Origin: Escherichia coli
GTDB lineage: Bacteria > Pseudomonadota > Gammaproteobacteria > Enterobacterales > Enterobacteriaceae
Strand: one strand, 5' to 3'
Assembly (NCBI RefSeq): GCF_003334815.1
Contig: NZ_QOWO01000023.1
Length of the DNA: 64,000 nt
Under the pieces are notes generated by a model that was given only the letters and a program-made list of their open reading frames with translations, did no database searches and was not told the origin of the DNA. Below, piece after piece: positions 16,768 to 16,971 of the stretch. Position numbers and translations under genes: made by a program. The stretch's first letter is position 1. Every line of letters starts with the position of its first letter.

Positions 16768-16971
16768 ATTGCGACGTAGTATCCACACCAAGCCGGCGTT
16801 ATCCGGTGAGGCGCAATGTTGCGGGGCTTTATCCCTGGTGGCATTGGTTGCTGGAAAGAGAAAACCCCCGCACGTTGAGAGGTAAAACCTGACAACAAAA
16901 CGGGGGCTAATCTTGAAACCAGACACTTCAAGAATAGCCGCAAAATGTTGTCATTACAACAAGGCGGCTAT

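Follow-up and report, generated by a model that had tools for sequence, protein, structure and literature searches.

The question raised by this locus is small in size. In a toxin array whose three copies are nearly alike, one copy has four Gs where the other two have five, and it must be asked whether that difference is real, how it is inherited and what, if anything, it does to the toxin gene downstream. The window, meaning the whole stretch of DNA that was analysed, is 64,000 nucleotides of Escherichia coli sequence, and positions are those of the window. Within it, 16560–18260 is the chaA–kdsA interval of E. coli K-12, which carries three tandem LDR units. A megablast search with this interval found matches in each of the 5,426 complete E. 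coli genomes and 100% identity to an assembly of J53, a K-12 strain. The region is the known ldr/rdl type I toxin–antitoxin array of E. coli K-12. Each unit is about 535 nt and, counting from chaA, the copies are LDR-C (copy 1), LDR-B (copy 2) and LDR-A (copy 3); the window is oriented opposite to the MG1655 annotation of ldrA/rdlA, ldrB/rdlB and ldrC/rdlC, from which the names are taken. The parts of the array are as follows.

16568, end of chaA
From about 18290, minus strand, kdsA
16972–17079, plus strand, ldrC toxin ORF of 35 aa, copy 1
17507–17614, plus strand, toxin ORF at the ldrB position, copy 2, here of LdrA/C type in sequence
18042–18149, plus strand, ldrA toxin ORF, copy 3
16859–16924, minus strand, rdlC antisense RNA, copy 1 (Rfam RF01813, 91.8 bits; the MG1655 annotation maps to 16857–16924)
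17394–17459, minus strand, rdlB antisense RNA, copy 2 (Rfam RF01813, 91.4 bits)
17929–17994, minus strand, rdlA antisense RNA, copy 3 (Rfam RF01813, 91.4 bits)

The antisense scores are to be read against the threshold of the Rfam rdlD family (RF01813), which is 50 bits. All three toxin ORFs encode the peptide MTLAQFAMIFWHDLAAPILAGIITAAIVSWWRNRK, labelled in RefSeq as belonging to the Ldr family toxins, and each has the characters of that family: a hydrophobic ORF of 35 aa, the FWHDLAAP core, the conserved Trp and a charged C-terminus. Each Rdl, about 66 nt long and cis-antisense to the 5′ UTR, ends 48 nt upstream of its own ldr ATG and does not overlap the start codon. The locus is thus identical in kind to the LDR-A/B/C repeats of K-12, as these are related in PMC4147584 and PMC2887945 (after Kawano et al. 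2002), sharing with them the 35-aa Ldr ORF, a long and structured mRNA, and an Rdl of approximately 66 nt opposite the 5′ UTR. Toxicity, and its repression by the cognate Rdl, is known from the literature for LdrD/RdlD and for LdrA. In the literature searched, which comprised papers other than the primary LDR ones, we found no mention of the G-run difference or of copy-specific differences among ldrA, ldrB and ldrC. Elsewhere in the window, two tRNA-plus-RtT repeat units at its start (51–607) and the C0299 sRNA (56610–56688, minus strand) are also consistent with the K-12 map.

The G runs were read directly, compared in a three-way alignment and checked by script, with the same result each time.

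16823–16826, plus strand, G run of copy 1 (LDR-C), 4 G, the same in MG1655
17357–17361, plus strand, G run of copy 2 (LDR-B), 5 G
17892–17896, plus strand, G run of copy 3 (LDR-A), 5 G

In copy 1 the four Gs lie within gttgcGGGGcttt, and the last of them is 146 nt upstream of the ldr ATG (16972). The contrast between four Gs in copy 1 and five in copies 2 and 3, with which the original prediction began, is therefore agreed on by all three checks. The repeats are spaced 534 and then 535 nt apart upstream of the run and 535 and 535 nt apart downstream of it, and this change of spacing across the run fits a 1-nt indel located there. Over the transcribed unit of about 371 nt, the copies differ otherwise at only four positions (16797–98, 16898 and 17155/18225), the last of which is the base after the terminator stem. 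The G run of LDR-D has five Gs. As had also been claimed, the indel shifts the frames of the minus-strand ORFs that cross the run: the ORF at 16656–16943 in copy 1 has 95 aa and its counterparts in copies 2 and 3 have 65 aa, diverging right after ...PPGIKP, and for a second one the lengths are 59 aa (copy 1) and 42 aa (copies 2 and 3). Minus-strand ORFs over the run are absent from the RefSeq annotation. As this is a difference of a single base, a chance statistic does not apply to it; the element that goes beyond chance is the conservation of five Gs elsewhere.

The simplest explanation of a missing G is a homopolymer error of sequencing or assembly. The array does bear signs of repeat homogenisation elsewhere, which lend this explanation what support it has. 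The window differs from MG1655 at nine positions in the array, and all nine make the three copies alike. Three are in the ldr ORF of copy 2 (17532, 17551 and 17591), and the others are in the rdl of copy 3 (17955, 17988, 17990–17992 and 17996). Copy 2 thereby loses the residues specific to LdrB and codes for the peptide of LdrA and LdrC. A 100% match to 17500–18010 was found in just two of 5,441 records, J53-p1-pV-hybrid-1 and strain 184/2aE, and the cause of the differences may be either gene conversion in a laboratory lineage or homogenisation of the repeats during polishing of a hybrid assembly. At the G run, by contrast, MG1655 (NC_000913.3) is the same as the window and shows the same 4/5/5 pattern, so that the indel is not peculiar to the assembly of the window. 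Together with the presence of four Gs in 1,013 independent complete genomes, this refutes an assembly error, to which we assign practically no probability.

Run length was typed across the 5,426 complete E. coli genomes by megablast, using queries of 44–47 nt centred on the run. Queries this short seed only at an identical run length: the 4G query matched 1,013 genomes even though all of them carry 5G, and the limitation of the 4G query to these genomes while 5G is universal shows that the queries discriminate run length. Five Gs were found in 21,703 copies, in every one of the 5,426 genomes, with a median of four copies per genome. Four Gs were found in 1,020 copies in 1,013 genomes, with at most two per genome, and six Gs in 498 copies in 373 genomes; three Gs had no match in the 5,426 genomes. 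Of the 23,221 typed copies, 93.5% are thus 5G, 4.4% are 4G and 2.1% are 6G, and the 4G allele is present in about 19% of complete E. coli genomes. It is shared by K-12 derivatives that were sequenced independently. Consistent with this, the number of 5G copies in NEB Turbo is exactly three, the count that a 4G LDR-C would predict.

When four of the 4G genomes, from Pakistan, Switzerland, Belgium and China, were checked, it was in every case the chaA-proximal copy that had the allele, and the adjacent ChaA was identical in all four (WP_000063607.1). In three genomes of other lineages, including E. coli C, the orthologous copy has five Gs and ChaA is WP_001295620.1. The examples with six Gs come from the interior of multi-copy LDR-D arrays located between yhjV and bcsG.

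The comparison was extended by a pattern scan of one genome per species, from which 46 distinct leaders were aligned. Ldr loci were found in Citrobacter, Kluyvera, Pseudocitrobacter, Salmonella enterica subsp. arizonae and diarizonae, and several Escherichia species, and the mean column identity of the leader is 84% across genera. The run has five Gs in 42 of the 46 leaders, four in K-12 LDR-C and two Kluyvera copies, and six in one E. coli copy. These sequences show five Gs to be the ancestral state, strongly maintained and overwhelmingly the common one. One 503-nt contig labelled Bacillus sp. EB106-08-02-XG196 (L041) encodes an LdrD-like peptide nearly identical to that of E. coli, and this is probably enterobacterial contamination of the assembly.

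A homopolymer that changes length between copies and strains at the start of a small ORF recalls the contingency tracts of bacterial pathogens, and the original prediction had raised slipped-strand variation as something to look for in other isolates. Under this explanation, the run would be a phase-variable tract that switches one toxin copy. Lengths of four, five and six Gs do all occur in E. coli, and gains or losses of one nucleotide have occurred independently in Kluyvera and at each of the two LDR loci. The LDR run differs from contingency tracts, however, in being only 4–6 nt long, in the strong predominance of 5G among the typed copies, with 3G absent, and in the inheritance of the variant with its flanking haplotype. 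Where isolates were checked, 4G was found once per genome, in the same copy and on the same haplotype in four of four cases, and its being common to independently sequenced K-12 derivatives likewise speaks against switching. A phase-variable tract was rejected on the grounds of the short run, 5G dominance and stable, haplotype-linked inheritance, and we regard it as very improbable.

From the genome counts and the single-copy, single-haplotype pattern, it follows that 4G is stably inherited and is neither an error nor phase variation. The preferred reading is that 4G is a derived deletion of 1 nt in the chaA-proximal LDR-C, inherited stably with its flank. Its single origin rests on the four sampled genomes and on the one-copy-per-genome pattern, and the account as a whole, including what is said below of its consequences, is probable.

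What a lost G could do depends on where the run lies relative to the ldr transcript. The transcription starts of ldrD (3,700,272) and rdlD (3,700,136) come from the dRNA-seq of Thomason 2015, as given in the table of a later paper. The ldrD start is the A of gcAAGCCGG, 7 nt past a TAGAAT box, and it lies 34 nt upstream of the homologous G run. Copy 1 shares this −10 box and the +1 context, as do homologues of five genera. A scan of the array for the sigma-70 consensus found no promoter, and the −10 box was taken from the alignment and the mapped ldrD start. By homology with ldrD, transcription of ldrC would start at A16790, 7 nt downstream of TAGTAT, giving the following features.

16777–16782, plus strand, TAGTAT, putative −10 box of the ldrC promoter, by homology with ldrD
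16790–17160, plus strand, putative ldrC mRNA of about 371 nt, comprising the 5′ leader, ldr ORF, 3′ UTR and terminator

The terminator hairpin is at 17129–17154 and is followed by a T run. On this map, the G run is at +34 to +37 and the ldr AUG at +183, with the segment complementary to Rdl between them at +70 to +135. The run in copy 1 would thus be transcribed as part of the ldrC leader, as had been proposed, with the mapped ldrD start lying upstream of its homologue. The further proposal, that the run is within the Rdl target, fails: it is 31–33 nt outside the duplex, according to whether the Rfam interval or the annotated rdlC is used. A direct effect of 4G on Rdl pairing is ruled out by this position outside the duplex.

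The intactness of this map also bears on another explanation, namely that copy 1 is decaying and non-functional, and that the deletion is tolerated since ldrC no longer matters. Copy 1 lies at the edge of the array, with a unique upstream flank. In addition, the chaA–kdsA locus has from one to three LDR copies depending on the strain, and in E. coli PF9285 (L004, 2826–4172) an IS4 transposase gene lies inside the second LDR unit of the array; copy number variation and IS4 interruption indicate that individual copies are dispensable. Against decay, copy 1 keeps an intact ldr ORF, −10 box, Rdl and terminator, which hardly differ from those of the other copies, the LdrC peptide is the same as LdrA, and the 4G allele persists unchanged in 1,013 genomes with no further decay. 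Decay of copy 1 is, on balance, distinctly unlikely.

The preferred reading, a stably inherited deletion, leaves the role of the run in the leader to be considered. All structures described here are thermodynamic predictions. The G run is complementary to two C-rich segments, and a second G run also enters into the folding.

16833–16836, plus strand, CCCU, with which the G run pairs in SL1, a predicted local hairpin (16810–16851)
16865–16877, plus strand, CCCCCGCACGUUG, partner of CAAUGUUGCGGGG(G) (16814–16826) in the predicted long-range helix, at the 5′ edge of the Rdl target
16902–16906, plus strand, second G5 run, pairing with CCCCC in a hairpin that mirrors Rdl

In the local hairpin (16810–16851), GCAAUGUUGC-GGGG pairs with CCCU-GGUGGCAUUGGUUGC, and this is the MFE fold of the leader alone. 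In the alignment, 94.7% of its cells are paired; one pair is compensatory (U-A to C-G), and many U/C changes exchange G-U with G-C. The long-range helix is paired in 100% of 550 cells, and in 99.7% when extended. It is the helix chosen by RNAalifold both for the leader alignment and for the full-length mRNAs of the 46 homologues, and it is also present in the MFE fold of the full-length K-12 mRNA. For this helix, a covariation analysis found no double-sided changes, and 363 of 500 shuffles equalled its score; the region is almost invariant, so that covariation is unable to choose between the two helices. In one ldr copy of Kluyvera genomosp. 3 (L031, 430–615), a 4-G run faces a 4-C long-range partner run, and this single case of matched lengths is suggestive support for the pairing.

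Equilibrium folding of the growing transcript gave the local hairpin up to about +70, the long-range helix from +84 to +112, two local hairpins from +125 to +260 and, in the complete mRNA, the long-range helix again. The full-length fold was calculated for the mRNA of copy 2 (17324–17694) at −165.7 kcal/mol, with a z of −7.1. In the full-length consensus of the 46 homologues from five genera, a closing helix between GGCGC (+21–25) and GCGCC in the 3′ UTR is paired in all 46. The consensus also retains base pairs joining the ldr ribosome-binding region to the 3′ UTR, several of which show exchange among G-C, G-U and A-U.

Folding and comparison together suggest a base-pairing role for the G run in the leader. 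When the transcript is short or 3′-truncated, the run would pair with CCCU 7 nt downstream, forming the top of a hairpin in which an upstream AUG is buried. In the full-length mRNA, GCGGGGG would instead pair with CCCCCGC at +76 to +82, which is the 5′ edge of the Rdl target. The CCCCCGC segment would have the second G5 run as its alternative partner, and the long-range helix would lie within a hok-like 5′–3′ fold-back.

The effect of losing one G can be calculated for each of these structures. Five Gs match the five Cs perfectly, and four are predicted to leave a bulged C. The free energies are given below.

Leader alone: 4G, −79.3 kcal/mol; 5G, −83.0 kcal/mol
Full-length mRNA: 4G, −160.0 kcal/mol; 5G, −163.7 kcal/mol
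Local hairpin: 4G, −15.4 kcal/mol (z −1.35); 5G, −19.1 kcal/mol (z −2.70)
Long-range domain: 4G, −27.0 kcal/mol; 5G, −30.7 kcal/mol

The cost is therefore about 3.7 kcal/mol in either fold, out of about −160 for the full-length mRNA. The predicted order of conformers is the same for 4G, 5G and 6G, and a clearer preference of 5G for the long-range helix is confined to a single intermediate length (320 nt). Of the suggestion in the original prediction that the indel could alter folding, what stands is its plausibility, in the form of this predicted cost; the change is nonetheless predicted to be small, and the predicted order of folding stays as it was. Most likely, as far as the models go, the consequence of 4G for ldrC regulation is small or negligible, the allele being nearly neutral or at most a mild modifier of expression. 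In a kinetic switch, 3.7 kcal/mol could weigh more than is expected from equilibrium folding. The 4G run is a real and ordinary reference-genome allele of a known system, and by itself it matters little.

The predicted architecture resembles that of the hok/sok/mok system of plasmid R1 and its chromosomal homologues. There too the antisense RNA lies over the 5′ leader and not over the toxin start, and the hok mRNA is very stable and highly folded, as is predicted for ldr. The 5′–3′ closing helix predicted for ldr, together with pairing of its 3′ UTR to the toxin RBS, would be similar to the hok fold-back element. The leader ORF mok has a parallel in ldrX, a leader ORF that has been proposed for ldr. 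On the sense strand, the Rfam sok model (RF01794) gives sub-threshold matches at 16823–16974, 17357–17509 and 17892–18044, with scores of 26.9–29.3 bits against a threshold of 59. The match begins precisely at the G run, ends at the ldr AUG and has the pairing of the G run with the C run as its first helix. Membership of ldr in the hok/sok family was rejected, as the scores are below threshold. The toxins are unrelated, reviews call the systems non-homologous and, unlike mok, the K-12 upstream ORF in which the G run lies ends short of the toxin ORF. The resemblance to sok is thus one of analogy and not of family membership.

That upstream ORF gives the run a second possible role, which is in translation. 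Its coordinates are as follows.

16816–16878, plus strand, small upstream ORF with its ATG at 16816, the run forming codons 3–4, 20 aa in copy 1
17350–17427 and 17885–17962, plus strand, upstream ORF in copies 2 and 3, 25 aa

The upstream ATG is preceded by GGTGAGG at 16805–16811, and the peptide changes with run length, from MLRGLYPWWHWLLERENPRTLRGKT with five Gs to MLRGFIPGGIGCWKEKTPAR with four. It is the only ATG-initiated ORF that lies wholly within the 5′ UTR. According to the reviews consulted, ldrX is a leader ORF that Gerdes and Wagner proposed for the 5′ UTR of ldrD; in that account its translation is coupled to that of ldrD and blocked by RdlD, and this is unconfirmed. The upstream ORF seen here is a candidate for ldrX.

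Were this ORF translated, the run would set its frame. The explanation to be considered is that translation of the leader ORF opens the leader and licenses translation of ldr; 4G, 5G and 6G would alter the leader peptide and the point where the ribosome stops, and hence the expression of each copy. The ATG at +27, with GGTGAGG ahead of it, is present in all E. coli copies, and the start codon is ATG in 38 and GTG in five of the 46 leaders, making 43 with one or the other. The reviews' account of an ldrX that is coupled to ldrD and blocked by RdlD points the same way. In K-12-type copies, the three frames stop within 16 nt of one another, at 16876, 16883 and 16890, all inside the Rdl target, and in 6G copies of LDR-D type the upstream AUG reads into ldr to give one ORF of 88 codons. 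This last arrangement was seen in multi-copy LDR-D arrays (L007–L010, position 2214; L017, minus strand), where six Gs put the upstream ATG in frame with ldr with no stop between them; the 88-codon ORF has no PGAP annotation.

The pattern of conservation runs the other way. The start codon is ACG or GCG in three of the 46 leaders, whereas all 46 keep these columns base-paired. The W-to-R and Y-to-D replacements are first-position changes of U to C or U to G that turn G-U into G-C pairs. Among the 46 leaders the ORF can be as short as 14 codons or longer than 55, and its frame with respect to ldr is not constant. Although GGUGAGG hardly varies, the predicted folds place this motif, too, in a paired region. 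In K-12, the upstream ORF ends more than 80 nt before the ldr AUG, which makes classical coupling unlikely. With peptide, frame and stop not conserved, the sequence comparison argues against a conserved coding function, although the ORF may be translated in E. coli, and a frame-setting role for the run seems unlikely.

A more elaborate combination, in which run length would select both the frame of the leader ORF and the ribosome stop, and the run would also be the pivot of a hok-like conformational switch, is highly unlikely. If it were true, ribosomes on 4G and 5G leaders would stop inside the Rdl target and those on 6G leaders of LDR-D type would read into ldr as the 88-codon fusion, and the run-length alleles would be natural potency variants of individual toxin copies.

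The alleles nevertheless have their uses. The literature calls the regulation of the ldr leader unknown or unconfirmed, and the 4G, 5G and 6G alleles that occur in nature could serve as mutants for studying its folding, specifically the pairing of the run with the edge of the Rdl target, and also the question of whether the proposed ldrX is translated. In addition, the 4G run and A16898 are among the very few markers that separate ldrC from ldrA and ldrB transcripts in sequencing data. Further along the leader, a hairpin formed by 16912–16918 and 16928–16934 (columns 129–135 and 146–152 of alignment A2) presents the target of the 5′ tail of Rdl. It is the sole leader helix with abundant compensatory changes, in five of its seven pairs, a sequence pattern that fits a possible role in copy-specific recognition.
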